From NCBI RefSeq assembly GCF_021869535.1, contig NW_026262581.1:54746001-54810000 (forward strand): a stretch of 64,000 nt of DNA, read 5' to 3'. Source of the stretch: Mytilus californianus (taxonomy: Eukaryota). Each line of letters begins with the position of its first letter. The stretch's first letter is position 1. Below, one piece after another: positions 25,231-62,590 of the stretch. The position numbers and the translations under genes are program-made. A model generated the notes under the pieces. That model was not told where the DNA came from, searched no databases, and worked only from the letters and a program-made list of their open reading frames with translations.

Positions 25231-26192
25231 TCCTTAAATAATTACATTGTTCTGATGAAATATATTTTTACTAGGCCAACCACCCGGATTGCAAACATAT
25301 CCCCCAACATGAACACATACAGTCGCCGAGTCTTTGCACTAAATTGTAATTTAAAATGCAGAATGTCCGGGAAATAACAAAACCTTACCTTTAAATATTT
25401 GGTTATACCAATAAAGAACCTGGGATCAAACAAAATGCCTTCAGCTTTTGAGACGATAATGCTACCTCAAAGACAGTTGTATATATTGTAATAAAGTTTC
25501 ATAAGTTCATTTTGAATTATTAAGTTTTCGATGCGCAGTCACAATGAATTTCAGTACGTATGTTGATGACAAAGAAATTATTTTTGAAATTGATCTTAAT
25601 AAGTTCGAAGATTTTGTTTTTTGTTATTGAAGATAGATATTCCGTCGTTTATGTATATACTTCTTGTTAATGCCGATCTGAATCCTGGTGTTGTTCCAGT
25701 TACGACTTCGGTTTCAGTCTTAACAAGGGATTCTGCTTTGCTTTTTTTTTGTTTGATCGACAGTACGCAGATTTACTTGGAAAGTGTTGAGCCTCCAGTA
25801 AACATATACGCGCGATGATTGATTGATATGAATGTTGGTTGCTTTACGTCCAGTGACAAATATTTCATGTATGTTAGCGACGCCCTTGTCGAGCTCAAAG
25901 TAGCACAGTTGTTTCCCATGGGAATGCAGAGAGTTACCTTCAATGGTGCAAGCTCCAGGGTAGATTACTTGCGGACTTTTGGGACAATGTCAAGAGTGCT
26001 AAAATACGAAAAATGTATGACAAATAGTAACACTTGATAAAAGAAACAAGTTTACATACCATAAATACTTGAACGCTGTATGTAAACTCATATTAACAGT
26101 AGGAATCCATTGCAGACGGAGTTGTGGAAATCTTGAGTTTTCATCAGTAACACTATTTTACGGAACGTGAAGTTTCTACGGTAAAACGTAGA

Positions 26193-26623
26193 TTGATTGA
26201 TTGATTGTTGGTTGCTTAACGTCCAGTGGCAAATATTTCATGCATATTCAGGACGAGAACAAGTTCACAATAAATACAATAGGTAGGTTCTGTAATAGAT
26301 TAAGGGATTAAGGTCGGAGAAATTTAGACTGCCACGGGAAATGAGGGTATATTGGATAGGGACAGAAATTTAGCCTTGCAACAGGTCACCTACGGACCCC
26401 TCAAAGAGTTGTTGCAAGGGTTCTTAACGTGCAAAGAACGTGGCACTTTCTTTACACGAGGCATCGGATTTAACGTCCCCATTCTGACCGGACGTGGCTG
26501 CAAATTTGTACATCCCGCACAGCCAAACGGACGCCCCACTTTAGCACGGGTTTTACTGCCGGTCGGAGGAAGACCAATGGTGACCATACTTCTATTCCCC
26601 AGTCACCCTTGGGGGGGGGGGGG
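26193..26623 (-). mobile_element. Young full-length SINE-like retroposon with (TCAA)n tail and 13-bp TSD
   Basis: TSD ggtaaaacgtaga at 26180-26192 and 26624-26636. About 4 substitutions relative to the 45584 copy. Confidence 0.9.
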
Positions 26624-38801: not shown

Positions 38802-39003
38802 GTCTGTTGCAAGGCTAAATTTCTTTCCCTATCCAATATACCCTCATTTTCCCGTGGTAGTCCAAATTTTCCCGACCTGCAACCCAGTTGACCTGTATTA
38901 CATGACCTACCTATTGTATTTATTGTGAATTTGTTCTCGTCCAGAACATGCATGAAATATTTGCCACTGGACGTTAAGCAACCAACAATCAATCAATCAA
39001 TCA
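38802..39003 (+). mobile_element. SINE-like retroposon, 3' half
   Basis: Ends atatttgccactggacgttaagcaaccaacaatcaatcaatcaatc. Confidence 0.85.
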
Positions 39004-42699: not shown

Positions 42700-43072
42700 C
42701 CCAAGGGTGACTAGAAAAAAGAAATATGGTCACTACAAGTCTTCTTCTAAATGTGGGGCGTCCGTTTAGCTGTACGGGACGAACAAGTACGCAGCCACGT
42801 CTGGTCAGACTAGGGACTTTAAATCAGAGGGAATGCACGTTAAGAACCCTTGCAAAAACTCATTGTGGGGTCCGTAGGTGGCCTGTTGCAAGGCAAAATT
42901 TCTGTCCCTATCGAAATTACACTCATTTTCCAGTGGCAGTCTAAATTTCCTCGACTTTCATCCCGGACGGCCTCTATTATAGGACCTACCTATTGTATTT
43001 ATTGATAATTTGTTCTCGACTTGTACATGCATTAAGCATTTGCCACTGGACGTTAAGCAATCAACTAATCAA
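42700..43072 (+). mobile_element. SINE-like retroposon copy (older)
   Basis: Starts cccaagggtgact and ends ccactggacgttaagcaatcaactaatcaat. Confidence 0.8.
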
Positions 43073-44049
43073 TGAATCTAAAATTGAGGCTTGTCATATT
43101 TTTAATTTAAGAAATGTGAGTAAACGTACAAGTAGGTCTTGCACTTTTTACCTCCACATCAATCATTTGAGAAAACACGAGTTTTAAACACAGGTAAAAA
43201 AATGAAAATGGGATAAAAGCTTCCCCTCAAAAACACTAAAACAAACATGCTTGCATGATTTTGTAGTTAATAAGCTCAAGGACAAACATTTATGTGTTGT
43301 TTTACCTGTGTTTTATCAATATTTATAGTGCAAGGGAACTTACTCTTGAAGGTTTCATTTCATTGCGTAAAAAAATTGGGACATTCAATCAAATAAAGTA
43401 AACATGCTAAACTAACTAAAGAAAAGTGAAACACAGAGACAAATAAATGAAAAAAATACAGTAATTGTTAGAATTAGACATCAAATGACAATAATTGCAA
43501 ATATGACTTCAGTTACAAAATGTAAATGTTGTAATTTTAATTTCACATAGTTTTATTTTATTTCATTGTTTGTCTTTTCAAATGAATACATGTATTGTGG
43601 ATGGATGGATGCATTGGGAAATTTTGTGTCTGATGCAAGGTTTATTTCAATATCTTGGACCATTATCCCATTTTCATAATTATTCAAATAAAAGAAAGTT
43701 TTTATTATAAAAAAAAACAACTAACTCAAAACATGCACATACAATACACTCTTGGAAAAGTGGGATTTGTTTTAATGATAAGATATATTTATCACTAAAT
43801 AAATGCAGTAGATTCATGAAAGGCTGTAAAAAGCAAATTGGATAACCTTTTAATAAGAATATTAACATGTTCAAAAACTAAACCTGGCTGTAAAACGAAT
43901 TCTTTGTGACTTGCATTCTGACATAGCTTAAGCTTTTTATATCCGTTTTTTGCGAGCCTGTGACCTGTAAAATTTGACTCTCAAACTTTTTTTTATACGT
44001 ACTATCATATATTTCATATTTACGTACTTAAAAAGTATTTCTTTCAGAG

Positions 44050-46060
44050 CCAATACAGCACGAGACTTTTTACCTAAAGCTTTCAAAGTCTTAAACCAAT
44101 GAAACATCACTTTTATTGTTGACTATCAAGACTGCTGCAGATGCACAGCCTATAGCATCGCGTGAAAAATTCTTATTTTTAGTTAGGCAAGTAGAAATTG
44201 TTCTATTACGGACCCGCACTTGTTTATATAGCTGAAAATTTGCATCTTATTCAAAGCAGTCTGAGAGAGTTTCATTTCCAAGAATGATTCTATTAACATT
44301 TTTTTTTCTCTGTCACCATTTTATTAAGAAAGTAAGAATTTCATTATACCGTGTTACCATCACTTTAAATCATTGGCAAAAGCTATTTTAGTATCATTTT
44401 ATTGGCCTTTGTAGCTTCAGGGAACATACCGACACTAAATTTGGCTCTGAGTACTTCTCGGAACTGACTTTCACCCATATGTATAGTATCTGCAAGTCTA
44501 TTTACTGACTATAAGGGATCAATATTTCTTGCATTGCTTCTTGTAAACCTTGTACACTTTTCCATCCCGATCAGTAGTTCAATAATGCACACAAGTAAAT
44601 CAAGTTTGGCAATTGTTTTACCTATTTCATTCCCAAGATCATTCTCATTCAAAGGATTATATACCTATTAGTGTTTGCTGTGGGGTATACATTATCAGAA
44701 CATTCAACCTCACAACCTTTACCGCGTAACCATGCACAAACCAAGCATAGTTTGTTTATTAAGTGAATACCTATGACATCATGATTGTCTGTTTCATTTG
44801 CAAAGGCAATACCAGTTACTTTTGATGCATTTTGTCCCATTTTATGTCTACTTTGTATATAAATACTCTGCTAGGTACCATCCATTTTTAATTTTACAGG
44901 ACTAATTTTATTTAAACCTAAGGTTTGATTTCTCCTAACATTATCAACCACTTGTTATCATTCTTATCAAGTTTTACAAACTTGTCACAACCATTATTTG
45001 TTATTCTCTGCATTGTTGTGTTTGCCATAAGAGGAATACATGAACTAGTCAAAAGTACTCGCGCGCTATCATTACCAATATTAGAGTTCATCACGCCAGT
45101 CTGAAACACGTAGTTAATTGTAGCACTCTTGCAACAAGGACGCCCTTTGTTAATTTCTCTAAGCAGTTTATATTTTTCTGAAATGAATGTACACTTGGCA
45201 TTTCCTAAATCCAACCGAGACCCCATTTAGTTTCTTGTATCAGTTCAAAATGTGGAACATCACAATTTGGACTTTTATTTATATGACAAATTATAAGATT
45301 ATAATCATAAAAAATGTTCAGATCTCTATCTACTGTTATGTTTTCTGTATTTTTCTCCACTAAATATTCATCTAGATAATCATCAGGCAATTTACGGGGT
45401 CGTACATAATATTTCTTATCAAAACTCTTTTGAGTAAAACTTAAACTCCATTTCAGTAAGTCCGGTTAAACAGACAGATACTGTGATGGTTTTAGGTGTC
45501 ACATTTGTAGTTGAATAAGAATATTCAAAATTAGGTGATGCCGGTGCAACTTGCTTTGATAAAGTTTTTAAATCTGTGTAGATTGATTGATTGATTGTTG
45601 GTTGCTTAACGTCCAGTGGCAAATATTTCATGCATATTCAGGACGAGAACAAGTTCACAATAAATACAATAGGTAGGTTCTGTAATAGATTAAGGGATTA
45701 AGGTCGGAGAAATTTAGACTGCCACGGGAAATGAGGGTATATTGGAAAGGGACAGAAATTTAGCCTTGCAACAGGTCACCTACGGACCCCTCAAAGAGTT
45801 GTTGCAAGGGTTCTTAACGTGCAAAGAGCGTGGCACTCTCTTTACACGAGGCATCGGATTTTACGTCCCCATTCTGACCGGACGTGGCTGCAAATTTGTA
45901 CATCCCGCACAGCCAAACGGACGCCCCACTTTAGCACGGGTTTTACTGCCGGTCGGAGGAAGACCAATGGTGACCATACTTCTATTCCCCAGTCACCCTT
46001 GGGGGGAAATCTGTGTAGATGGAGCAACACTATTAATAACACCACAATGTTGATTTGTTG
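44050..46060 (-). pseudogene. Unidentified ~2-kb decayed, apparently intronless coding region
   Basis: Four track ORFs (44649-44840, 44918-45226, 45205-45390, 45419-45631) plus further open stretches join end-to-end with frameshifts and stops. A SINE-like copy interrupts it at 45584-46006. No family recognised. Confidence 0.45.
45584..46006 (-). mobile_element. Young full-length SINE-like retroposon with 14-bp TSD
   Basis: TSD aaatctgtgtagat at 45570-45583 and 46007-46020; (TCAA)n tail. Confidence 0.92.
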
Positions 46061-46883: not shown

Positions 46884-47405
46884 TGTAACGATTTCGCCCC
46901 TTAAACCGAGTGGATAGGATTAAATAGAATAAGAGGCTTGACCGAACATAATTTGCATGGATCCTTTGAGTTGGTATAATGTTGAAATAATAACTAAGTC
47001 AGGTATAACTTTCAGCTGTACTTTATGTAGCATCTATGAAATCAAATATTTACAATTCATTGACAAACTATATATTTATATCTATATACAACATGTCGTA
47101 ATCATCCAATGTATATGTCAGGAAGGTTGATTGTTTCCGATGGTTGATTCGGTAGAAGGTTGAATTTTTCAACCTTCCGTTACCGATATCATAAAATACT
47201 TATCTTATTTCTTTCTGTTAAAATAAAACTAGATTTCCAGAAAAACTCTCATATTACGATAGAAGATTGACTAAGTGGAACGAAGGTTGACTGGGAATTT
47301 CCCATAGGTTGAAGGTTGACTTATGCAAAACCGACAATAGCCATGTGAAAGCCTTAACGTTAGAAGGTTTAGTTTTCTTACAACATTTAAGACCTGCATA
47401 CCATA
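46884..47405 (-). repeat. 3' LTR of Gypsy copy 1 (inner boundary uncertain, possibly ~47710)
   Basis: Homologous to 54490-55055 and 59390-60198 (gagaataagaggc, gcatggatcctttgagttggtataa, gaaggttgac, ccatgtgaaa blocks). Confidence 0.8.
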
Positions 47406-48258
47406 TGACTGCTCGAGTAAATAGACTATGTCACTGTTAGGATTTAGATGATCACGGCTAAATCACAAGTTATATCAAGAAAATAGGTTAGTTAAAAAGG
47501 TAAACACATTCCAGCATCATTTATTATAAACATACCTGCCAACCAACCGTAAATATTCTGTACCAGGTGAAATTCCATCGTAAAAAATCGATGTGAAAGC
47601 GTTAATAAAACCGCTGATTCATAAAATTACTACAATAAATTACGGACAAATGTGGTTCTAAGCACGAGAGTCATTAATTAAATCATACGATTACTAAATC
47701 ATAATACAGACCCCCGACAACTAGGCGTTTGTCCTCAAATGCACAGAAATTTATCTATACATGTATTAAATTAATCAAGTAATTGATTGGTTGGCTCAAA
47801 TGTTGAAAACAAAATTCAATAAGACAAACTGTCTTACAATGCCAAATTCATCCTATGCACTCTAACTTAAAACTCATCTATTCACATACAAATAAATGGG
47901 TTCATTTCAACAACATTCAACAAGTGTCAAATAACATTATCAATGGATATAAAATCCACAAATATAAGACAAACTTATAAACTACCTTCTACTATATATG
48001 AATAGTGAGCCAATACTGAACAGTAAAACCTGAGAAAAGAAAAGGATAAAATATACTTCATCAGTCATAAAGCCATCATAGGGCTTTTCTAAGGTAATTC
48101 TGTACAGCATTAAGAATATCTATCATCATTAAGCATAGCAAAATATATTAATAACACACAATATATATATACAACATGATCCTGTAAAATAAATTGTCCT
48201 AATAAAGTCCCCCCCCCCCCCCCCCCCCCCCCCACCCCCCCACCCCAAATGTTCATTT

Positions 48259-49430
48259 CTAAATTAAACTAAGTTGTTGGAGATCCAAAATCTTCTTCTC
48301 GACTGTGAATTCCGGTTGTCTCAACTCATAAAAATTGCACTCCACTTGCAACTCACGTCTCTAGGGAGCATGTCAGAATGGATACGGGCCTGATTTCTTA
48401 AGTAGTTAAGTATAAGGGGAAAGTGTTTAGCATCTCTGTCCAAAAAAATAGTTGTGACGTCCATCAAATATATATTGCTTCATTGGAGAGTCGACCTCAA
48501 TCGGATAAAATTGATTCTGGATATGACTGTAGAACTGTTGCAGAGATTTCAAACCTGGTACCACCAATATTTATTATGAACCGGGACTTCTGGCTCTTCT
48601 GAATCTGCTCTAGCTTAAGCTTCTTAACTGGGGTAGGGATATATGTAGCTGCAGGTTAACTTAATGGTGATGGTGAGGTAGCTTCCAGGGTTGGTGAATA
48701 GGTAAGGCAAGGTTCTGTTGAAAGAGGTAGGCATAATGATGTAGACATCACGGGTGACTCTGTTGCAGGGATCTCATTTGAAGAGATGGTTATATCAGCT
48801 GGGAGAGGAGAAATAGATTCCACCACCGCTGTTAGCATCTCGATCTTATAAAAATTTGTTTTCCCCAAAGTCACAGAGGGATACACCCTCAATACTTCCC
48901 ACTGAGGAAGTTTCCAGCTCTTTTAGTAGGTCTGTAAGGACTTCCTTCATTCTTGATCTCCTTCTCTTTTCCTTTACTCTTGTTCTCCTTTCCTCCTCTT
49001 TTTCTCCTTCCTCTTCTCTTTTCTCGCTTTCTTCTCTGGAGTCCTCTATTTCCTCTTTCTTCTCCTCTGGAGCCTTCTTTGGCTCCTTCCTTTTCTTCGG
49101 TTTCTCTTCCCCATATACTATCCTATTCAGCGGATAAAGGGCCTCCAACACCGCCCTAGATGTTGCCGACATCGTGTCCTTGTGCGAATTCCTTCTGTTG
49201 TTTTTCTGTCTCTCTTCTTTTTTCAACTGCGCTACCTTGTCCACCACTAATTTACCATCCCTCTCCTTTTGGAACTTTCTGTATTGCGATTCTTCTTCCT
49301 CGTTTAAAGTCATGGTCAGGCGACTTACCATCCTAAATTTGCTCTCACAGTTCTTATGAGCTTGTTGCCTGCTTACTACCACTTTCCACTCGTCGCAACG
49401 ATAGCCAAAGCCGCTATGTTGGTCCGACAT
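48259..49430 (-). pseudogene. Gypsy accessory ORF (~390 aa reconstructed): putative zinc finger, charged region, S/T/P linker and KCTD/T1-type BTB/POZ domain
   Basis: BTB part (48280-48589) reads KSRFIINIGGTRFEISATVLQSYPESILS..EVDSPMKQYIFDGRHNYF(L)DRDAKHFPLILNYLRNQARIHSDMLPR..RELQVECNFYELR. One premature TAA and several frameshifts. Confidence 0.85.
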
Positions 49431-49739
49431 GTGCCTCTTACAAATAATAGATTGGTCGAAGCTGAAGTCATGGCATATACTACATGCGTATACTGTGACC
49501 TATAATTATGAAAAGGAACATTTCCTTTAAAAATTTTGTGATATAATTTTATCTTAACTGATAAAATATATGATATGAAATATTTCTATAACTGTACTAT
49601 GCTGGGTAGACTATGGATATTTTAGGGTTCAGCTTCCCCTTATAACCCTAATTACTATTTAAACCAATCGGGAACATTTTCTCCAAGATGGGGCTTCAAC
49701 CTGTCTTTGTGCATCACTTTAAGCTTGGTCTTTGGACCT

Positions 49740-51400
49740 TTCTGGGTGCACTACTTTATGCTTGGTTTTTAAACCTTTCTGTATACGATAATTCACATCG
49801 TGAAGTGTATTTATGACAATATATGGACCCTCCAAATTATTTTGTAGTTTTGGACATAACCCCTTTACACGACGAGGATTGTGTAACCACACTGGATCTC
49901 CTGTATCAAATATGTGCATTTTAGTCCCAATGTCATAATTTCTTTTCATCCTGTTGCTTGACAGTTTAAATTTATTTCTTGCAAATTGCTGAATTACCTC
50001 TGACTTTTGAGATAATTCATATGCATAAACAGTTTTTAAATATGAAGGTGACTTTTCAGTCTCTGGTCTCCCCAGAATAAAATCTACTTGTAAATTAACT
50101 TATCTTCTAAATAACATGGAACATGGAGATGTGAAGCGCCAAACTGATACTATAAATTGTTGGCAGATATTATGCAAATATCAATGATAAAAGTCACAGT
50201 ATTAAACTGTTTTGAAAGTCCAAACTTTGTAAAACTAGAAACAAGATTTGTTTAGATAAATAAAAGCAGCTTTATCAAAAGCTAATATCATTAATAATAG
50301 TTATCAATTAATACAAATAAATTGCAATGTATTTTATATAACTTGCAGTGTGTGCAAAAGTACCTGAATAACAAAATACTGTAAACTGTCAAAATCAGCT
50401 GTTCACTCTGGGCTCTAATTTGAAACTGACAACACTTTCTGAAAACGTTTGTTAGACGACGTCACTCAATACACGCTTAAAATAGTACATGTACTCACAA
50501 ATGTGAAAGTAAACCAACGTGGCCTTCTAGTTGACAATTAGGATTTGGGATAATTCTAATTTTATAAAAGGATAAATATGGATTAAATAGGATGCATTAA
50601 TAACGTCTAAATAAGGTAATTATGTTGTAACTATGAAAGATCATTCCGCATAACAAGCAAGTGTGCAAAAGTGAAAATAAGTATGACCTAGTTTCGCAGA
50701 AAATATACGCCAGGAAATACAAATAAAATGAATGAATGAAGGCTATTACTTAAAGAATTACTGTCAATAATTGTGGCACAACAAGATGTACCCAAACTCT
50801 CATGTTCTGATGACCGATAGGCACACCATTAATAAATAAATATCTTCATCCAAATCTCTTTGGTGTTTGCTTAAAAAAACAGATAACATAGTTTCTATAG
50901 TAAAATTTGACTTTTCAACCATACCATCCGATCCAATATTGCACATTTCTTTAATTACACGAGACTCAAAGTTAGACCCTTGGTCTGAGTGAATAGACAG
51001 TGGAATCCCAAAAATGGTAACTATTATTTTTACAAATTTCTTAGCTACTGTAGTTGCTTCAGTGTCTTGAATAGGTATGGCTTCCGTCCATTTGGAAAAA
51101 TAGTCTTGAACTACCATCAAATGGCGATTATTATTTATACTACATGGTAAAGGTCCTAAAATATCAATGGTCATTCTTTCCCAATGAACACCCAAAAGAT
51201 ACTTTTTCATTGGGACCTTGGGGTTTTTTACAAGGTGCTTTCTTAGAAGCTCAAATATCACATTTGGTACACCCAAATTTAACATCTTGTCTCATTGTAT
51301 ACCAAAAATGTCTGTTTAATTTTTTACAGAGTTTTCCTAACACCAAGATGACCACCGGTCACTGTGTTATGAACTTGGTTCAACAGGAACCTTTTAAAAT
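49740..51400 (-). pseudogene. pol: Gypsy integrase (HHCC, core and GPY), split by an insertion at 50133-50783
   Basis: Reads HNTVTGGHLG...CTKCD, WERMTIDILGPLP, QDYFSKWTEAIP, SDQGSNFES, GMVEK and LEGPYIV. Confidence 0.9.
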
Positions 51401-51989
51401 TAGCTGGAAGAACAATGTGTAGATCATAACGTTTTCCGTTATAGCTTTCCCATTTTCTATACAAGATTCCATTGACCAGTATTAAAGAATTAAACTTGAA
51501 CAATAAAATTTAACTTCAGGACTCATATGGGATACATCTGCCCATGTAGGTTTAGCTTCATCTATTTTCCACTGTATAATTATACTGATTATATCATAAG
51601 ATAACTGAGATGTTGAAACATTTTCAGAATATATCTCTTTAGTTGGAGTGTCTTTATCAAAATTCTCATTCTGTTTATTATATAGACTGCAACCATAATT
51701 TTTTGATCTGGTACAAACTCTTTCTATTTTAGAATGTTCAGGGAGTACATCAGGGTTTTTCTTTGGACCCTCTCTATTAAATTTATTATGAATGTCGTGA
51801 CTTTTAGATTTGTGGCACGATTCATCACTTGTCATGTTTGTTCTCATGATTTCATTTGAACAGCTTATACTAGGTTTTACACTTGACTGCTGATCAGCAC
51901 TGACATCTTGAACAATTTTGCAAGATTCACGTACAGTGACATTAGAATTTTCAACCTTAGAATTGTCAGATTCTTTATGAGTTGGACAA

Positions 51990-53260
51990 AGTTCATAATT
52001 CATTTCTGCTCTAGCACAATGAGGGCATTCTTTATTATAGCAAGGACGTCTACTTAGGGCGTCTGCATTATTATGGGACCTTCCAGCACGGTGCTCAATT
52101 TTAAAATCATAGGATGATAGGACCTCAAACCAACGAGCTAACTCGCCTTCCGGATTCTTGAAATTAAACAACCAACTTAATACACCATGGTCACTTCTAA
52201 CTTTGAAGTATTCACCATATAAATAATGATGAAAATGTTTAATAGAGGTCACTACTGATAGTAGCTCTCTTCTAGTAACACAATATTTTCTCTCAGATCT
52301 ACTGAAAGTTTTACTAAACTAACAAATCTTGGAGTTGGGATAGCACTGCTCCCATACCAACATTACTTGCGTCGGTATCTAATATAAATAAATCCTCCCT
52401 TGTGGGTAGGCCAAAATAGGTGTTCTAATTAAGGTATTCTTTAATTCCTCAAAGGATGGTTGACAATCGTCTGTCCTGACAAATTTCTGGTTTTTCTCAG
52501 TAGCCTTATAAAAAAAATCTATAATAGGATGTTAATCCTAGAAAACTTCTTACATCTTTGATACTCTTGACCACTGGCCAGTCCTTAACTGACTGAATTT
52601 TATTTGAGTAAGTAGCTACTCCACTTTCACTAATGACCTAAAAATATAACTTCTGTCTTTAAAAAGTTACATTTCTTGGGATTCAGCTTTAAATTGGCTG
52701 CTTTTAATCTTTGAAAAACTTCTTTTAAGTTTTTCATATGCACCTCAAATTATTTTTGAGAAAATAACAATATCTACGTAAACTAGACAGATTTTCCAGG
52801 TCAAATCTGATGAAACTGTTGCCATTAATCTTTTAAATACAGGGGCACTATTACATAGATCCGTTGGCATTCTTTTGAACTGCCATAGACAACCTCCAGG
52901 AAAGGAAAAGCTGTTTTTCGTTTATCTTCTTTGGCTACTGGGATCTGACTATATCCTGACTTTAAATCGACAGTTGAGAAGAACTTGGAGCCTGACAATG
53001 AACCTATAGTGTCATCTATACGAGGTAATGGGTAAGATGGTCGTAAAACCAGGAAATTTACGGAGAGAAAATCAATACAGAATCGCCAACTGTCGTCTGA
53101 CTTCTTCACGATAACAATATTGGAGTTCCAGGGACTTGTTGATGATTCTATAATATCTTGCTTAACCATCTTCTGAATCTCAGCTTCATCATTTTTTATT
53201 CTAGCTAGGGGTATTCGTCTGGGTCGCTGACGTACTGGAAGGTGATTTCCAGTATTTATG
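51990..53260 (-). pseudogene. pol: Gypsy RT and RNase H
   Basis: Reads SPWNSNIVIVKKSDDSWRFCIDF, YPLPRIDD, FSTVDLKSGY, CLVYVD-IVIFS (one Asp deleted), ERKYCVTRRELL, SDHGVLSWL, LARW and NADALSR. Confidence 0.92.
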
Positions 53261-53647
53261 GAAAAGATTATTTTATACTTGCAGTATTAGTATAGTACTA
53301 GTAGTGGTTACATCTAATATTGATAAAGTGTCTGTAGGTATTGATGAAGAGTCTGTAAATTCATGAATACTGGTTGTGGTGAGATCTAATGTTGATGGGG
53401 TGTCTGTATGTTTTTGAGGGCAAATGGTTGTGGTAATTGAAGAAATTATAGGTTGGATGATGTCTTGTGTGATGGTTCCATATCAATTGCGAAGGTGTCT
53501 GGAGAATCAACGGGTAAAAGATACTTAGCGAAAAGTTCATCGGATGGTATTATAGCTTCAGTTGGTGAGTCATTCAAAGATTGTTATTGGTGATGGTGTA
53601 CGAGGTTCCACACCCAACAGGTCTATAAATTCAGGCCTGTTAGCATT

Positions 53648-54245: not shown

Positions 54246-55207
54246 AACAATAAATTGAGCAGGTACTCAAAATAAATAATCTTGCATACATACAAACATC
54301 TCTGACATCCTAACCCCTCAACTGTTACACTAGCCCTACCCAGGGAGAAGCGTTCGTCTCGAACTAATATTAAGTAAAATATCTACCAAACAAAAAGCCT
54401 ACCTAACCTGTATTCAAACATCATCACTGGTCCAAATGTCTAAAAGTTCGTGCATATTTCCATCTGGGCGGTCGCAATGTTCTTTGTATAATAACGGTTT
54501 CGTCCCTTAAACCGAGTTGATATAATTATTGAGAATAAGAGGCTTTACCGAACATAATTTGCATGGATCCTTTGAGTTGGTATAAGGTTGAAATAAAAAC
54601 AAAATCAGGTATACATTTCATATGTCATCAGTAAAATCAAATATTAACAATTCATTGATAAACTATATATTGATATCTATATACAACATGCAATTAACAT
54701 TCGATGAATAGGTACTTAAAATTGAACAACAAATAAGAGAAGGTTGACTGTTTCCGAAAGGTTGATTCGGTAGAAGGTTGAAAGTTCCGTTACCGAAGTC
54801 TTAAAATATAAAAGTTGCTTTCATAAAATAATCATTTATTTTATTTATTCCTGCCAAAACGAAAGTAGGTTACCAGGAAACCTCTCTCATAATATTTTAA
54901 CAATAAAAGGTACACCAAGTGGAACGAAATTTGGCTGGGAAGGTAAAAGGATGACTCATGCAAAACAAATAGCCATGTGAAAACGTTAGAAGGCTTAGTT
55001 TTTCTTAAAACATAAAAACTGCATACCGGACATGAAGCAGATTTTGGTTCAGACAAAACAGCTGAACTAAAGTTGAAATTAAAATTACTGCAATAAATTA
55101 CTCACAAATGTTTGTTCTAAGCACGAGATACATAAATCGTAAGACCCCCCACCCCCACCCCCAATGTTCATCACAAGATCGTGAAATTGTCCTTATAAAG
55201 TCCACCC

Positions 55208-56185
55208 TCAAATGGTCATTCTTAAATCAAAGTAAGCTGTCGGGAGATCCAAAATCTTCTGTACAGCCAGTTCTAGGTGCCTTAACTCGAAAAAATTACA
55301 CTCAACTTGTAATTCACGTTGAATACGGATATCTCTGGGGAGCATGTCGGATTGTATATGTTCTTGTTGTCATAAATAGTTGAGGATGATGGGGAAAATG
55401 TTTAGAACCTCTTGCCAAAAAATAAGTATCCATCAAATAAGTATGGTTTCACTGGTGAATTAACTTCGATCAATGCAGATAAATATGAATCGGGATAAGA
55501 TTGTAGAATCTTTGAACAGACGTTTCAAAATATTGCGCCTCCAATATTTATAATTAACCGGGATTGCTGGCTTTTTGTATTTGTTCTAACTTAAGCTTTT
55601 TTACTGGAGTGGGGATATAGGTGACGGCAGATTGACTCAATTCTTTTGGTGAGGTAGGATGATGTATTAGGGAATAGGTAAGGCATGGTTCTGTTACTAT
55701 TGAAGGTGGTATATAAATAGATGTATTCCAGATCGCATAGTGACACACCCTCTATACTTTCAACAAATAAAGTCTCCAAATCTTTGTTAGAATTTCTTTC
55801 TGTTGACTCCCCTTTTCCTTTTCCTCTTTCTAGTATATGCTTTCTCTTTCTTATCCTGTACCGTCCTGTTCTGTTATCTGCTTTTAATACCATCCTATTA
55901 GGTGGATAAAGAGCTTCTAGAACAGCCGTAGGCATTGCTGACGTCTTATTTCTCTTTCTTATATGAGTTCCTTTTATTATTTTTCTGTCGTTCTAATAGT
56001 TATACCTTCTCTACTATAATCTTCCCATCCCTATCGTCCTGAAATGTCATGTACTGTATCTCCTCTTCGTGAGTGAAGGTCATAGTCGACTCGCTATCCT
56101 AGGTCTGCCCTTACAATTATTGTGATCTTGTTGGCTACTCGCTACTACCTTGCATTCTTCACTCCAATAGCAAATCCACTATTTG
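55208..56185 (-). pseudogene. Second copy of the BTB/POZ accessory ORF
   Basis: Reads SRLIINIGGAIF..ILQSYPDSYLSALIEVNSPVKPYLFDG..YFLARGSKHFPIILNYL*..SDMLPRDIRIQRELQVECNFFELRHLELAVQKILDL. The N-terminal part is homologous to 49430-49130. Confidence 0.85.
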
Positions 56186-56194
56186 TAAAGAATT

Positions 56195-57000
56195 GACAAT
56201 CGTCTTCTCAGTAACCTTTTACAAAGGTTTAGCTTTATAAGCAAAATTTATTACACATTTTCTATAGTGGGATGTTAATCCTAAGAAGTCTCACATTTTT
56301 GACACTCTTGGGCACTGGCAAGTCTGATCGTATTTTATTTCGGTCAGTAGCTACTCGACTTTCGCTAACAATGTGACCTTAAATGTAGCTTCTGTCTTTA
56401 AAAAGTTACAATTTTTTTATTCATCTTTAAATTAGCTGCATGTAATCTATAAAATTTTGTTCATATGCTCCTCAAATGATTTTGAGAATATAGATTAATT
56501 TCATCTAGGTAAACTAGACAACTTTTGCAGGTCAAACCTGATAAAACTAGTTCAATTAATCTTTCAAATACAGGGGCACTATTACAAAGACTCATTGGCA
56601 ATCTTTTGAACTGCCATAGACCACCTCCTAATAAGAAAAAGGCTAATTTTGTCTTTCCTTTTTTTGGCTATTGGAATCTGATAATATCACGACTTTAAAT
56701 TGACGGTGGTAAAGTATTTGGAGCCTGACAAAGAATCTATAGTGTCGTCTTTTCGAGGTAATTGGGATGAGGGGCGTAAACCTGCAAGTTTACCGGGCGA
56801 AATTTTTACAAATTCGGCAACTGTTGTCTGACTCCTTTACGAGAACAGTATTTGAATTCCAGGGACTTGAGGGTTCTTTGATATCATACTTTGCCATCTT
56901 CTGAATTTCAGCTTCATCTTTTATTCTAGCTAGGAAAATTTGTCTGGGTCGCTTACGTACTGGATGGTGATTTCCAGTATTTATTGTATGTTCCATTAAA
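56195..57000 (-). pseudogene. pol: Gypsy copy 2 RT remnant
   Basis: Reads HTINTGNHHPVRKRPRQI, SPWNSNTVLVK and CLVYLDE. Collinear with 52460-53255. Confidence 0.85.
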
Positions 57001-57577
57001 TCTGTTACACCAATGTCCTCAGAGGACTGTTAAAATATACTACATTGTCTTTATTTTTTCTTCTTTGATCCTCATCAAGATTAAGTTGACTAGATTCTTA
57101 AGCTTCCTGTAAATAATCAGGTAATTGTCTCCCTTTAATTATTGAAGCTTGACAATGACAAACTCAGAAGGTTGAATATCATCTTTCACTTTATTGCATG
57201 TAGCAATAAGTGTACCCTTTTAGAAAGTGCAGGGCGCATTATTTACATTTTTTATTTCTAAAAGGGATATTTTACATCTCTGGGTGGCACCAATGAACAA
57301 TTTGTGTCCATAAACTTTTAATTGTATTCTATTAATCCAATTAAACCTCTAAAAATAGGTTCATTTGACTGTCCCGAAACAATTATTTCTGAATAAGGAG
57401 GCACATTTACTGTCTCTTGTATAGCAACTATATAACAAGATTTAGCCCTACTTGCATAATGAAACCATTGAATTATATCCCCTTTAATTTTCGACTTCTT
57501 TGACTTAATAAGACATGACCGTCCTGAGTCACACGACAATTACCTGTGATTCTTTCAAAATGTCTGTCCCTATCCAA

Positions 57578-57742
57578 TATACCCTCATTTTCAAGCAGCA
57601 TTCCAAATTTCCCCGACCTTCATTCCGGACGGCCTCGGTTACAGGACCTACCTATTATATTTATTGTTAATTTGCTCTCGTCCTGAACATGCATGCAATA
57701 TTTGCCACTGGAAGATAAGCAACCAACAATCAATCAATCAAT
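57578..57742 (+). mobile_element. SINE-like 3' fragment inserted between gag and the protease/linker region
   Basis: Ends atatttgccactggaagataagcaaccaacaatcaatcaatcaatc. Confidence 0.8.
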
Positions 57743-57842
57743 CTTAATTGACTGAGCCAACTCCGGTTAACTTTCTACTTTCCCTTTGATACGGGTCTGG
57801 TATTTTGCCTGAAATAGTTCTGCTTTTTTCAGGAGAACATAT

Positions 57843-58060
57843 CTATTGATCAAAACTTACTAAACTTTCATAATCTTTCCTAGACTCTTTATCTAGTTCA
57901 TTTAACAGAGCTCTAGCTCCCCCTTTTAAGCTACAAGCCAAATCAAATGACTTGGTTGCATAATTCCAACCATTTATTTCAGCTAAAATTTCAAATTGAG
58001 CTAAATATGTACTGAAATCTTTATCGCCTTCACACAATTATGGTTTCATTGTAACATTGC
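57843..58060 (-). pseudogene. gag: Gypsy gag fragment
   Basis: Reads EGDKDFSTYLAQFEILAEINGWNYATKSFDLACSLKGGARALL, matching the Gypsy gag pattern DG..DW..Y..QFE..A..N.W....K...L...L.G.A. Confidence 0.75.
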
Positions 58061-58762
58061 CAGACTTGGGTGAATGGATATCGGAATTGGCCAATCTTGG
58101 AACCTGAGATCTATCCACTACGGCATAGTTTTGATTTATATTACATATTTTGTCTTTATCAAAAAAATATACATTATCCGTGTTCTGTTGTTGTTATGTT
58201 TGCACCAGGAACTGCTTGCCTAACTACTGATATCACTTTTGATATGTTTTCAGTGTTTACAATTTCACTCATGTAATCATTATAATTAACTAAATCATTA
58301 TTGTGTTCCATCATTTTGTAAGTGTTAGCGATAGTTTTCATCTTCAATTTTCATTATACCGCCCTTAATAAAGAAATTTCTTGTTCGAATCATGTCTTAT
58401 ATGTTTAATAGCGCAAATAACTTCTTTTTTGTAGTTTGAAAAATCATTAATTTTCTCCCTTGGTGGAATAAAGTTATTATGGTTTTTTTTAACACTGTTA
58501 AAAATATATCTTGTTCTTTATCATGGCTAATTATCTGCCTTGCAGAGTCAACACTATCAACCTTCTGATCATCATAAGGAATGGTTATTTCACAATCATT
58601 TTGCTCTAGGAAAGAATCATTAATAGCTATAATTACTTCTTCAGAATCATCCAAGATTGAATAAAACCTCTATTCCAAACATCTTCTTTGGGTTTATAAA
58701 CATTTTTAAAAGCCTAATATCAATAAAATTTACCAAAGCTTCCCCAGTAAAATTGTACAGAT

Positions 58763-59343
58763 AAAGGACAATGTACGATAAGGCCTGTTTTTAGCCCCCC
58801 TATTTTCTCATTTTTCAAATTCTGTTTTGGAAAGTTACTTATTATGTTAAAATATTCCCTGAGGTTTGAAGTTTGTTTGGATGAACTTCAAAACCACTAA
58901 TTTTAGCAACTGGGTGAGGTGAGGGGGGTAAACATTCTGTAATCATTCAAATATTGTAATTATTATTCACTTTGCAGGTGTTCCGTACAACTAATTTTTA
59001 GTTTTTAAGTGCCTGCGCCAACGTGACCCAAGAATTTTTTTATTCCAAGGTCATGAGAATTGTTTTTGGTGTCTAAATCGCCATAATTTTCTCCGGGTCA
59101 CGTAGGCGCACGCTATTAAATGTTAAGAAACAAAGGCCAAAAATCGTACTTTTTCCTTCTTTTGGCGTTTTTAATGCCCTTTTACCTCCCTGACTTCACC
59201 CATTTTCTGAAATTAATGGTTTTGAAGTTCATCCAAACAAACTTCAAACCTGAGGGAATATTTTAAAGTAGCTTTCCAAAACAAAATTTAGAAAAAGAGA
59301 AAATAGGGGGGCCAAAAACGGGCCTTATCGTACCTTGTCCTTT
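58763..59343. mobile_element. MITE/foldback element with ~170-bp TIRs in the Gypsy leader
   Basis: Left aaaggacaatgtacgataaggcc...gaggtttgaagtttgtttggatgaacttcaaaacca mirrors the right end ...ggccttatcgtaccttgtccttt. A second inner inverted pair is acgtgaccc/gggtcacgt. Confidence 0.85.
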
Positions 59344-59372: not shown

Positions 59373-59388
59373 CCCACTTCTGACACCA
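59373..59388 (-). promoter_or_regulatory. Primer-binding site complementary to the tRNA-Leu 3' end
   Basis: Minus strand reads TGGTGTCAGAAGTGGG one nt after the LTR end (...CGTTACA). The plus strand cccacttctgacacca equals the recalled 3' end of metazoan tRNA-Leu including CCA. Confidence 0.8.
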
Positions 59389-59607
59389 GTGTAACGGTTT
59401 CGCCCCTTTTACAAAGTTGATATAATTTATTGAGAATAAGAGGCTTTACCGAAAATAATTTGCATGTATCCTTTGAGTTGGTATAAGGTTGATGACATAA
59501 AAACTAAGTCAGGTATAAATTTCAAATGTACTTTATGTAGCATCTATAAAATCTAATATTTACAATCCATACGTACTTTTTGTAGCATCTTTACAATCCA
59601 TTATACC

Positions 59608-60040
59608 CAACGCAACAAACTTGCGAACGGTATAATGTTTTTGACCCGTCTGTCAGTCCTGTTCTTGTCATCGCAATTCCTCTGAAACTACAAAAGAGAA
59701 TTTCATAACACTTTGTAGATAATAAGGGCAAACTATGTATGTGCATATCAACAGGAAATTATGATACATTTTTTTTTTTTTGAGTTGTGTCCTTTTGAAA
59801 TTTATCCTAGATATACTACTGCAATAATTTGTCATCGAAACTCCTATGAAACCATACAATAGAATTCATGATACTTTGTGAATAATAAGGGCATACCATG
59901 TTGATGTGCATATCGACAGGAAATTATGATTCAATTATTTTCTAGAAGTTATGCCGCTTTGAGCTTAAAATTTTTGCCTAATTATACTACTGCAAATGTT
60001 TGTAATCGCAAATCCCCTGAAACCAAGAGCACACAACTGA
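59608..60040 (+). mobile_element. Truncated HINE inserted into the Gypsy 5' LTR
   Basis: tataccc..cgca-aaac-tgcg..ggtataa head, gtctgtcagtc microsatellite, and ~170-bp units as at 37207. LTR homology resumes at ~60045. Confidence 0.7.
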
Positions 60041-60534
60041 ACAATAGACTAAGTGGGACGAAAGTTGACTGGGCATTCCCCGAAGGTAGAAGGTTGACTC
60101 ATGCTAAAACCAAATAGCCATGTGAAAGCCTTAGATGGTTAAGTTTTTCTTAAAACATATAAAACCTGCGTACCAGACAGTAGATTTTGGTTCAGACACC
60201 TCATCGAAGGTTGACTATTTTTTTCGATCTCAGGGATTGTTTTATCTGCTCTTGCAGACGTGAGAATAAATCTAAAGATGTTTTGTAAACATTGCACAAG
60301 TCATGTCTTCTTTGACTGTCCATGACGTTAAAATACTAAATCCCTGGGATGTGTTTTAGTTGATTTTAGTCTCTGATGCATGATTTTTTATTATTAATTG
60401 TTTTTGGCTTTTAACTAGCTGCCAGTAACTGCTAGTACTCTCAAATCGTACTTTCTTGTTTATTTGACCTGTTGATACTAATTGTAATGCTTTTTTGTTA
60501 TTTAATGTTATTCAGGGTTATATCTGGTCTATAT

Positions 60535-61590
60535 ATAGATATAAGAAGATGTGGTATGAGTGCCAATGAGACAACTCTCCATCCAAGTAAAAATTTATAA
60601 AAGTAAACCATTATAGGTCACAGTACGGTCTTCAACACGGAGCCTTGGCTCACACCGAACCGTAAGCTATAAAGGGCCCTAAAAAATTACTAGTGTAAAA
60701 CCATTCAAACGGGAAAACCAACGGTCTAATCTATATAAAAAACGAGAAACGAGAAACTCTTATGAACCACATCAACAAACGACAACTACTGAACATCATA
60801 TTCCTGACTTAGGACAGGTGCAGGGTTTAAACGTTTTAATGGTATATACCAGCTTTGATAAGTGTTTGGAATTACTATACATTTTCACTTCTTCGTACTA
60901 TGAACATCAAAATTATTTATTTTGTAAATATATTTCCTTTCTCTTTTTGAACTGTACACGTATACCTAACAACAAAATTATTTTCATTTACCTGTGTTTA
61001 AAGTAATTGCAAATGGTTGATATTTTTGTTCAAGCATATTGTTTTTCTTACAATGTTTAACATTTCACAGCGGTATAACATGTTACTTTTATTATTCTTC
61101 CCTTAATTTATTTATTTTGTATTAACATTGTTTCATAGATCAAATTTATTTGTTCACTGGTGTTAATATGTCTTTTGATTGAGTTAAGCCATTTCAATTG
61201 ATATTTTATAGTGTGTCTTTCTATGTTGTGATGTTACACAATTGTTTCAGATAAGGGTAAAGGTTTGGTACCATTAAAACGTTTAAAGCCGCTGCAATTG
61301 TTTACACCTGTGCTAAGTCAGGAATCTGATGTTCAGTAGTTGTCGTTATTTGATGCGGTTCATAAGTGTTATTCGTTTTTCGTTTTTTATATAGATTAGA
61401 CCGTTGGTTTTCCCGTTTGAATGGTTTCACACTAGTAATTTTTTGGGGCCCTTTATAGCTTGCTGTTCGGTGTGAGCCAACGCTCCGTTTTGAAGACCTT
61501 ACTTTGACCTATAATGGTTTACTTTTATAAATTTTGACTTGGATGGAGAGTTGTCTCATTGGCACTCATACCACATCTCCTTATATCTAC
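60535..61590. repeat. Inverted pair of ~290-bp interspersed repeat copies
   Basis: 60535-60825 (plus) is the reverse complement of 61295-61590, with scattered mismatches and a ~470-bp spacer. Confidence 0.85.
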
Positions 61591-61599
61591 TTATTTTGC

Positions 61600-62590
61600 T
61601 GAACATTTTTGCTGTTTACAGTTTTTTTTCATTAATAATATTCAAGATAATAACCAAAATCTGCAAAATTTCCTTAAAATTACCAATTAAGTGGCAGCAA
61701 TCCAACAATGGGTTTTTAAATTCATCTGAAAATTTCAGGGCTGACAGAGCTTGGCCTAATAAACATTTTGACATCCATCAGATTAGCTCTAAATGCTTTG
61801 GTTTTTGAGATATAAGCCAAAAATTGCATTTTACCCCTACGTTCTATTTTAGCTATGGCGGTCATGTTTTTTTACGAAACATAAAATAAAACACAAACTT
61901 TATTTTAGATACCCTTAGAATCATTCAGCTTAAGTTTGGTTGGAATTGGTTCAGTAGTTTCAGAGAAGGAGATTTTTTAATGTTAGAAATAAATAAAGGC
62001 AACAGTAGTATACCGCTGTTCGAAACTCATAAATCGATAGAGATAAAAACAAATCCGGGTTACAACATGAAACAATGTAAATACAAAATAGATAAACTAA
62101 GGGAAGAATAATAAAAGTAACATGTTATACCGCTATGAAATGTTAAACAATTTAAGAAAAACAATATGCTCGAACAAAAATATCAGCCATATGCAAAAAA
62201 GATCTACAAATAAGTTTGTATGACCAAAATTGTCAATTGTCCCCTTAAGGAGTTATTGCCCTTCAAAATCAATTTTTCACAATTTGTTTATTTTGTTTGC
62301 TTACTTTAAAAAATATTCTCCTCTGAAACTGCTGAATCAATTTCAGCCAAACTTGGGCTGAATGAGTTTCAGAGTATCTAGTATAAATTTTGTATTTTAT
62401 TTTCTTGTACGTCAAGAAACATAGCCACTATGGCTAAAATGAAACATAGGGGTAAAATGCATATTGAAGAAAATAGGAAGTTTTAAGCCATTGATTAATA
62501 TATATTGAAAAGCAAAAATAATCATTGATGAAAGATTTAAGCAAAAAATTACAGGTGAGCGATTCAGGCTCTTGAGAGCCTCTTGTTTAT
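61600..62590 (+). mobile_element. Fragmented HINE-like sequence with an intact 3' end
   Basis: 3' end caggtgagcgattc-aggctct-tg-agagcct-cttgttt (perfect 7-bp stem). Internal segments at 61810-61870 and 62420-62465 are inverse-related. Confidence 0.5.

Follow-up and report, generated by a model that had tools for sequence, protein, structure and literature searches.

Two decayed copies of a Ty3/gypsy retrotransposon

The window (the whole stretch of 64,000 nucleotides of Mytilus californianus DNA analyzed here) contains two decayed minus-strand copies, in tandem, of a single Mytilus Ty3/gypsy LTR retrotransposon family, designated family A (Table 1). The assignment to Ty3/gypsy is based on the order of the element's parts, with LTRs, a primer-binding site (PBS), gag and a pol running from protease through RT and RNase H to integrase, and the closest named proteins were Mytilus entries at 76-97% identity (9 of 11 matches). 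Copy 1 (~53261-46884) lacks the 5' part of the element and retains RT, RNase H, integrase, an additional gene (ORF3) and the 3' LTR. Copy 2 (~60277-54492) retains an interrupted 5' LTR, the PBS, gag, protease and RT; its RNase H and integrase have been deleted, and a deletion near 56205/56184 has removed the splice acceptor and first ~26 codons of ORF3, so that the start of RNase H now runs directly into codon ~27. The 12-nt PBS is identical to one listed as a tRNA-Leu PBS in the accessible part of PMC8905726. It is also the PBS of Steamer, from which family A differs in its LTRs (~1 kb, versus 153-219 bp in Steamer).

Table 1. Features of the two family A copies in the window.
Feature	Position	Strand	Basis or remarks
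Copy 2 5' LTR remnant	59390..60277	-	476-bp insertion at 59571-60046; splice-donor motif near 60174
Copy 2 primer-binding site TGGTGTCAGAAG, just inside 5' LTR	59377..59388	-	
Copy 2 gag remnant	57742..58754	-	79% to younger copy L055
Copy 2 protease and RT remnant	56205..57557	-	Alignment
Copy 2 ORF3 remnant (second half of zinc-finger domain, linker, BTB)	55225..56184	-	Stops and frameshifts; 5' end deleted
Copy 2 helix before BTB (first block of the first-pass annotation)	55575..55619	-	Codon comparison
Copy 2 BTB_2 (KCTD/T1-type) remnant	55225..55562	-	Weak piecewise PF02214 match (E 0.079); alignment to L055
Copy 2 BTB C-terminal helix (second block)	55280..55318	-	Codon comparison
Copy 2 3' LTR remnant	54492..55056	-	Mini-exon/donor remnant 55056-55025; 4 TCAACCT copies (54586-54776)
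Copy 1 pol remnant (RT, RNase H, integrase)	49650..53261	-	651-bp insertion at 50133-50783
Copy 1 predicted ORF3 splice acceptor	49500..49530	-	T-rich tract, TAG, phase 0
Copy 1 ORF3	48259..49499	-	Finger and linker open for 217 aa (49499-48849); BTB frameshifted
Copy 1 3' LTR	46884..47704	-	Donor motif near 47402; 6 TCAACCT copies (47125-47314)

Other repeats occur in the same region. A SINE/MITE-like dispersed repeat is found in both orientations (57558-57743, 38817-39002, 42896-43081, 26188-26487 and 45578-45877), one copy being inserted between gag and protease of copy 2. Nested inverted repeats at 60531-62461 and 58763-59343, with arms of 78-290 nt at 78-93%, are probably non-autonomous DNA transposons, one of them within the leader of copy 2.

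ORF3 encodes a zinc finger and a KCTD-type BTB domain

ORF3 lies on the sense strand between pol and the 3' LTR. In younger copies its product has a C2H2-type finger with a second Cys/His cluster at the N-terminus, then a stretch rich in Lys, Arg and Glu, then an acidic Ser/Thr/Pro stretch, and at the C-terminus a BTB_2 domain. The latter was matched with E-values of 2e-16 to 4e-19 in families A, B, D and E (2e-16 in younger copy L055), with PF02214 scores of 60-69 bits against a curated cut-off of 21.4 that identify it as a KCTD/T1-type BTB; two matches persist in copy 1 (E 4e-6 and 5e-4). The nearest solved structures are KCTD15 and KCTD1, followed by other KCTD/Kv T1 domains, and the fold matches of the BTB model were all KCTD-type BTB chains, at a loose fit (rmsd about 7.5). 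Like other KCTD/T1-type BTB domains, that of ORF3 is presumably a homo-oligomer (tetramer or pentamer). The finger conforms to the classical C2H2 pattern, with residues C4, C7, H21 and H26 invariant in 9/9 sequences; the second Cys/His cluster departs from this pattern. The finger model (pLDDT 91) consists of two strands and a helix, has C2H2 clusters among its Atlas neighbours and superimposes on DNA-bound C2H2 fingers over ~44 residues with an rmsd of 1.8-2.0 A; a Foldseek search of the finger against PDB and BFVD returned no match below E 0.001. An env-like identity was considered for ORF3 and rejected: the Pfam scan yielded only BTB_2 and weak finger matches, with no env match, and neither a hydrophobic leader nor a membrane span was visible by eye.

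Five families (A to E) carry this finger-plus-BTB ORF3, and they fall in one RT clade (45 rows, SH-aLRT 99). In sister Gypsy families (L234, L235, L236, L241, L246, L250, L261, L263), ORF3s of 180-400 aa encode C2H2 fingers without a BTB domain; several of these are rich in Lys/Arg at the N-terminus and have a C-terminal tail that looks conserved. Within the finger-ORF3 clade, a divergent member (L251:7505-9900) has a GC-rich ORF of 581 aa after pol, without a Pfam match and overlapped by other long frames. A separate Gypsy clade (L237, L239, L242, L245, L247) carries ORF3s of ~830 aa with hydrophobic leaders and, by eye, an env-like appearance; none of the 3 that were scanned had a Pfam match above cut-off.

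ORF3 has been maintained by purifying selection

From a codon comparison of the two copies, the first-pass annotation of this locus had concluded that the BTB accessory ORF was under purifying selection and its protein functional in the active lineages. Its counts were reproduced exactly: the YIPTPVKKLKLEQIQ block (48643-48599 vs 55619-55575) presents 9 synonymous and 0 replacement differences in 15 codons, and the RELQVECNF(Y/F)ELR block (48357-48319 vs 55318-55280) presents 6 synonymous differences and one Y/F codon (2 nt). The pairs of stop and sense codons that it described were also recovered, TAA (near 48658) facing CAA and TGA facing AGA. ORF3 is indeed an accessory gene, but in copy 2 it is no longer an ORF, given at least 7 frameshifting indels in the helix and BTB, plus stops. 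The two blocks had been chosen by eye, as that annotation itself cautioned; the excess of synonymous differences, however, does not arise from this choice, because alignments made by nucleotides only still yield omega values of 0.13-0.22. In these alignments, each copy was placed against the frame of a younger natural copy, codons beside gaps were masked, and the Ser/Pro stretch of copy 2, which is unalignable, was left out of dN/dS. Between copies 1 and 2, omega was 0.17 (0.08-0.32) for the BTB core (78 codons; dS 0.97, dN 0.16), 0.13 for the BTB with its preceding helix (94 codons) and 0.22 for the 118 codons of the N-terminal half, read in the frame still open in copy 1. For the BTB core and the helix plus BTB, four of the five other frames gave 1.9-3.8, and only the antisense frame that shares wobble positions was low (0.2). 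Neutral simulations (150, with indels and the identical pipeline) had a median omega of 1.08 (0.70-2.02) and a minimum of 0.54. For RT, the same pair of copies gave an omega of 0.70 (0.43-1.09), a value dominated by post-insertion decay.

The comparison was extended to further copies with a codon likelihood model, implemented in a custom script, that assigns tip and internal branches to separate classes; the finger and BTB were represented by 8 copies and the pol domains RT, RNase H and integrase by 7, with more decayed copies set aside. Omega on tips and internal branches, respectively, was 0.163 and 0.03 for the BTB, 0.123 and 0.046 for the finger, 0.414 and 0.041 for RT, 0.34 and 0.002 for RNase H, and 0.404 and 0.085 for integrase, and a likelihood-ratio test of the BTB against omega=1 gave p of about 1e-47. 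The model thus supports the earlier conclusion: BTB and finger are as constrained as pol, and ORF3 is kept by purifying selection as strong as that on pol, with the proviso that the omega values of ORF3 and pol are not strictly comparable, since synonymous sites in pol are possibly constrained. Within families A and E, a given pair of copies shows a dS 3-6 times as high in ORF3 as in pol, and GC3 is 0.24-0.31 in pol vs 0.38-0.59 in ORF3. The low GC3 of pol suggests that its synonymous sites are constrained, and the higher ORF3 dS may reflect either such constraint or recombination. Recombination as the source of the deeper ORF3 divergence receives weak support from tree tests, in which the pol, Ser/Pro and BTB trees agree and reject the finger tree (p-AU about 0.01), while the finger data do not reject the other three trees (p 0.21).

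Constraint varies along the protein and among families. The linker is less constrained (pairwise omega about 0.15-0.5 in divergent pairs). In family E, both divergent pairs gave omega values of 0.05-0.15, near-identical pairs being uninformative, and between families D and E the dN of the BTB (0.15) is close to that of RT/RNase H (0.16). The four copies of family B show recent, neutral-looking decay, with omega about 1 in both pol and ORF3, and are uninformative on selection.

The first-pass annotation had also argued that ORF3 is not inert transduced DNA, and this holds. Both window copies are broken, and the elevated ORF3 dS lowers omega arithmetically, yet the idea that ORF3 is inert captured host DNA, or that block choice or alignment created its low dN/dS, is refuted by the frame controls, the simulations, the likelihood-ratio test, the match between BTB and RT dN across families D and E and the uninterrupted ORF3s of young copies, as well as by the absence of a donor gene among 23 host BTB_2 domains, and retains practically no probability. 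Both window copies are dead, and ORF3 served the element in its active lineages. Purifying selection is to be expected on a real extra ORF and would be ordinary alone; the protein and its context are less so. The first-pass annotation did not notice that ORF3 has a zinc finger at its N-terminus, is likely expressed by splicing from the LTR and belongs to elements whose LTRs carry motif arrays.

Predicted expression from an LTR mini-exon

In family A, ORF3 is preceded by an in-frame stop, its first Met lies inside the finger and no ATG precedes the finger. The 23 codons before that first in-frame Met nonetheless carry 15 synonymous vs 4 amino-acid variants among 6 copies. In all five families a YAG in phase 0, behind a T/A-rich tract, is located 4-5 codons before the first finger cysteine; it is present in 17/18 copies among those listed (L058 is decayed, and one L054 copy is offset by a 1-nt indel). 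At the protein level, [FLYP]Q occurs 4-7 residues before this cysteine in 26/42 homologs vs a 3.3% background, the 42 being those with at least 8 upstream residues among 65 single-finger matches. The RefSeq M. trossulus protein P0014, from a sister family, begins with 8 residues that are encoded, 7/8 identical, in the family E LTR directly before GTTAGT, and the donor GT is intact in 22/22 LTRs. An equivalent candidate mini-exon of 10 codons in the family A LTR is conserved, in the manner of coding sequence, across 17 older LTRs (ATG 0.96, GT 0.94, codon positions 0.85/0.95/0.73); in the LTR remnants of the window its start reads TTG or GTG (TTG in the 3' LTR of copy 2). A scan for donors picked up the family A candidate but not the family E donor, and returned nothing convincing in families B, C and D.

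From these sequence features, the ATG of ORF3 very probably comes from a mini-exon within the 5' LTR, of 10 codons in family A and 8 in family E, that is joined to the ORF3 acceptor by a phase-0 splice, with gag-pol as the intron. Spliced messages are the typical route of ORF3 expression according to the accessible part of PMC5408684. Against splicing, no LTR-to-ORF3 joint was detected in two read sets (6 distinct runs; 59 and 18 true RNA reads; one true RNA run sampled at ~6%). Unspliced contigs cross the predicted acceptor in family A (run X4) and family E (run X8), and the predicted donor in both families (run X4). In run X4, which is RNA by guess, depth is ~22 over L055 6431-8885 and 0-4 over most of gag-pol; the contig starts inside integrase, not at the acceptor. 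A single X4 contig on L069:3073-8539 (family E) has a GT..AG joint that leads from the boundary of gag and pol into the 3' LTR, possibly a gag-only spliced RNA.

Family-specific motif arrays in the LTRs

The LTR of each finger-plus-BTB family contains its own 7-mer 7-11 times. In family A, TCAACCT occurs 11 times vs 0.16 expected; the corresponding 7-mers are CACCAAA in family B, GCACCAA in C and CGTCACC/GTCACCG in D and E. The motifs are family-specific and resemble one another where the fingers are alike (B with C, D with E), and they are rare inside the elements, where 7-8 kb contain 0-3 copies. Part of the array in families B, D and E lies within tandem repeats. The LTR of the finger-only sister family L241 presents CACAATG 10 times.

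Control loci were obtained from 150 RNase H matches as 40 other Gypsy loci with long pol frames, 29 of which had an LTR pair; removal of 10 near-duplicates left 19 families, some with partial LTRs. An array was detected at p 0.005 in 5/5 finger-plus-BTB families, and at p<0.05 in 5/8 finger-only and 0/11 finger-less families (Fisher 1.5e-4; 0.007 with control LTRs of at least 750 bp, control LTRs being shorter on average than those of finger families). All finger-bearing elements belong to one RT clade, so the contrast amounts to one phylogenetic comparison, and motif bases show no extra conservation (0.87 vs 0.85 for the rest of the LTR); for both reasons the pattern is suggestive only. With this reservation, the arrays suggest that the family-specific motif marks the target of ORF3.

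A possible regulator of its own LTR and alternative functions

ORF3 may be an oligomeric zinc-finger/BTB regulator that binds the repeated family-specific motif of its own LTR, a reading to which we give an even chance. Through the BTB, several subunits would come together and bring multiple fingers to the clustered LTR motifs, the charged or acidic linker would recruit host factors, and the element would more likely be switched on or shielded from silencing than repressed. Oligomerising BTB domains that bring fingers to clustered short sites are known from GAGA factor and ZBTB proteins, although the ZBTB-type BTB is N-terminal and belongs to a different Pfam family (PF00651). Foamy-virus Tas, a virus-encoded LTR transactivator translated from a spliced mRNA, offers another parallel, without a BTB.

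The reading finds its closest analogue in VANC of the Arabidopsis VANDAL elements, likewise an element protein associated with dense short-motif arrays in non-coding DNA that differ among families and are often tandem repeats (PMC5735166, accessible text). Finger-plus-BTB elements share with it the dense family-specific array in their non-coding DNA. The two are compared by description: VANDAL is a plant Mutator-like DNA transposon, and binding and demethylation by VANC have been shown (PMC5735166, same text), whereas for ORF3 the corresponding activity is proposed from the arrays. It is the LTR array pattern and this resemblance to VANC targets that favor an LTR-binding regulator over RNA export, cullin-3 and tethering roles.

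The main rival, which we consider unlikely, is a Rev- or CERV-like RNA factor in which a BTB ring would bind the motif in element RNA and export or protect unspliced gag-pol RNA. With gag-pol as an intron, export of unspliced RNA is required, and the family A sites mostly fall downstream of the likely transcription start and in one orientation (11/14 sites in one orientation, 9 downstream of the donor), which fits RNA binding equally. Precedent exists in CERV of the C. elegans element Cer1, which in the available text of PMC10309623 is an accessory protein of an LTR retrotransposon, is made from a spliced mRNA, bears a cysteine finger and is predicted to assemble into a ring of at least 5 subunits, and for which export of genomic RNA has been shown. 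CERV, however, shares exons with gag and has H/M/G domains (PMC10309623, same text), while ORF3, as far as a comparison by description goes, lies after pol, would draw on an LTR mini-exon and has a BTB domain. Against this rival, if the motifs share an ACC core, those of D/E run opposite to those of A/B/C, and A, C and E each contain some sites in reverse; the weak fold matches of the finger are mostly to DNA-bound C2H2 arrays; and sites in the R region would also occur at the 3' end of the spliced mRNA and would therefore fail to mark unspliced RNA.

A role as cullin-3 substrate adaptor, with the BTB binding CUL3 and the finger delivering a host silencing or restriction factor for ubiquitination, appears improbable. 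KCTD13, KCTD10 and KCTD5 are among the close structural matches, and many KCTD BTB domains bind CUL3 according to the accessible part of PMC10856315. The top matches, KCTD1 and KCTD15, are nonetheless validated CUL3 non-binders there, perhaps through a proline in the alpha2-beta3 loop, and alignments inspected by eye show a proline in this loop in most ORF3 BTBs. An adaptor role would also leave the LTR motif arrays unexplained. Modeling of three BTB copies with the N-terminal domain of cullin-3 (close homolog P0233) scored 0.00 without alignments, which is evidence neither way. Slightly less probable still is an integration-targeting or particle-scaffold protein tethering cDNA ends or integrase to chromatin, a reading that fits the concentration of motifs in LTRs, which are the cDNA ends, and the multivalency conferred by the BTB, but has no link to integrase here and sits poorly with a separate spliced mRNA, more typical of regulators and env (PMC5408684, accessible text).

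Relation to described accessory ORFs

Precedents exist for accessory ORF3s, for accessory regulators made by splicing and for anti-silencing proteins with motif arrays. The ORF3s of other Ty3/gypsy elements (env; GDSL and DEDDy in bdelloid rotifers) are alike in their sense-strand position between pol and the 3' LTR (PMC5408684, accessible text), while the Mytilus product combines a finger with a KCTD-type BTB and has no Pfam match to env or to these enzymes. The BTB_2/T1-type domain is held in common with host KCTD proteins, the nearest being KCTD1 and KCTD15, from which ORF3 differs in being element-borne and in placing the BTB C-terminally, after a finger and linker. The literature searched contained no description of an LTR retrotransposon whose ORF3 pairs a finger with a KCTD-type BTB, Repbase/Dfam and subscription journals lying outside the search. 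The term BTB is absent from the accessible main text (supplements excluded) of PMC5408684, PMC6238403, PMC8905726, PMC8220671, PMC10294476 and PMC6338049, and in that of PMC3212892 it is mentioned only for host KCTD1. Within that scope, the finger plus KCTD-type BTB ORF3, fed by a predicted LTR mini-exon, is apparently undescribed. If ORF3 binds its own LTR motif, each family constitutes a matched protein and site, which would make retrotransposon self-activation or evasion of silencing directly testable in animals.

Distribution and origin

A search with a finger profile returned 242 clusters at 50% identity, including, among the 150 listed, some unrelated multi-finger proteins. BTB_2 was present in 30/54 hand-chosen longer matches (28 above cut-off), and among 30 clusters looked up, those with an organism name belong to Pecten, Gigantopelta, Crassostrea/Magallana, Dreissena, Pinctada and Mytilus. 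Scallop, oysters, Dreissena and a gastropod thus also have finger-plus-BTB proteins, known there as protein sequences, the retrotransposon context coming from the Mytilus genome only. A tentative possibility, somewhat short of an even chance, is a mollusc-wide Gypsy clade with its own BTB-multimerised finger regulator expressed from an LTR mini-exon, in which finger and motif array would co-evolve by family, as an animal counterpart of VANC and of complex-retrovirus transactivators.

In a tree with 23 host BTB_2 domains, the ORF3 BTBs form their own radiation and none pairs with a sampled host domain; their monophyly is not rejected (p-AU 0.11) and appears in 0% of bootstrap trees. An earlier BTB tree contained only Kv-like hosts and was thus an unfair test of host origin. 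The M. californianus genome also harbors a large expansion of short single-exon Kv-like T1/BTB_2 ORFs (open frames of 160-230 aa), many of them clustered. Among 20 mid-ranking BTB_2 loci inspected in the genome, 4 proved to be element ORF3s rather than host genes, and public gene models of ORF3s carry misnomers such as KCNC4 or potassium channel regulatory protein.
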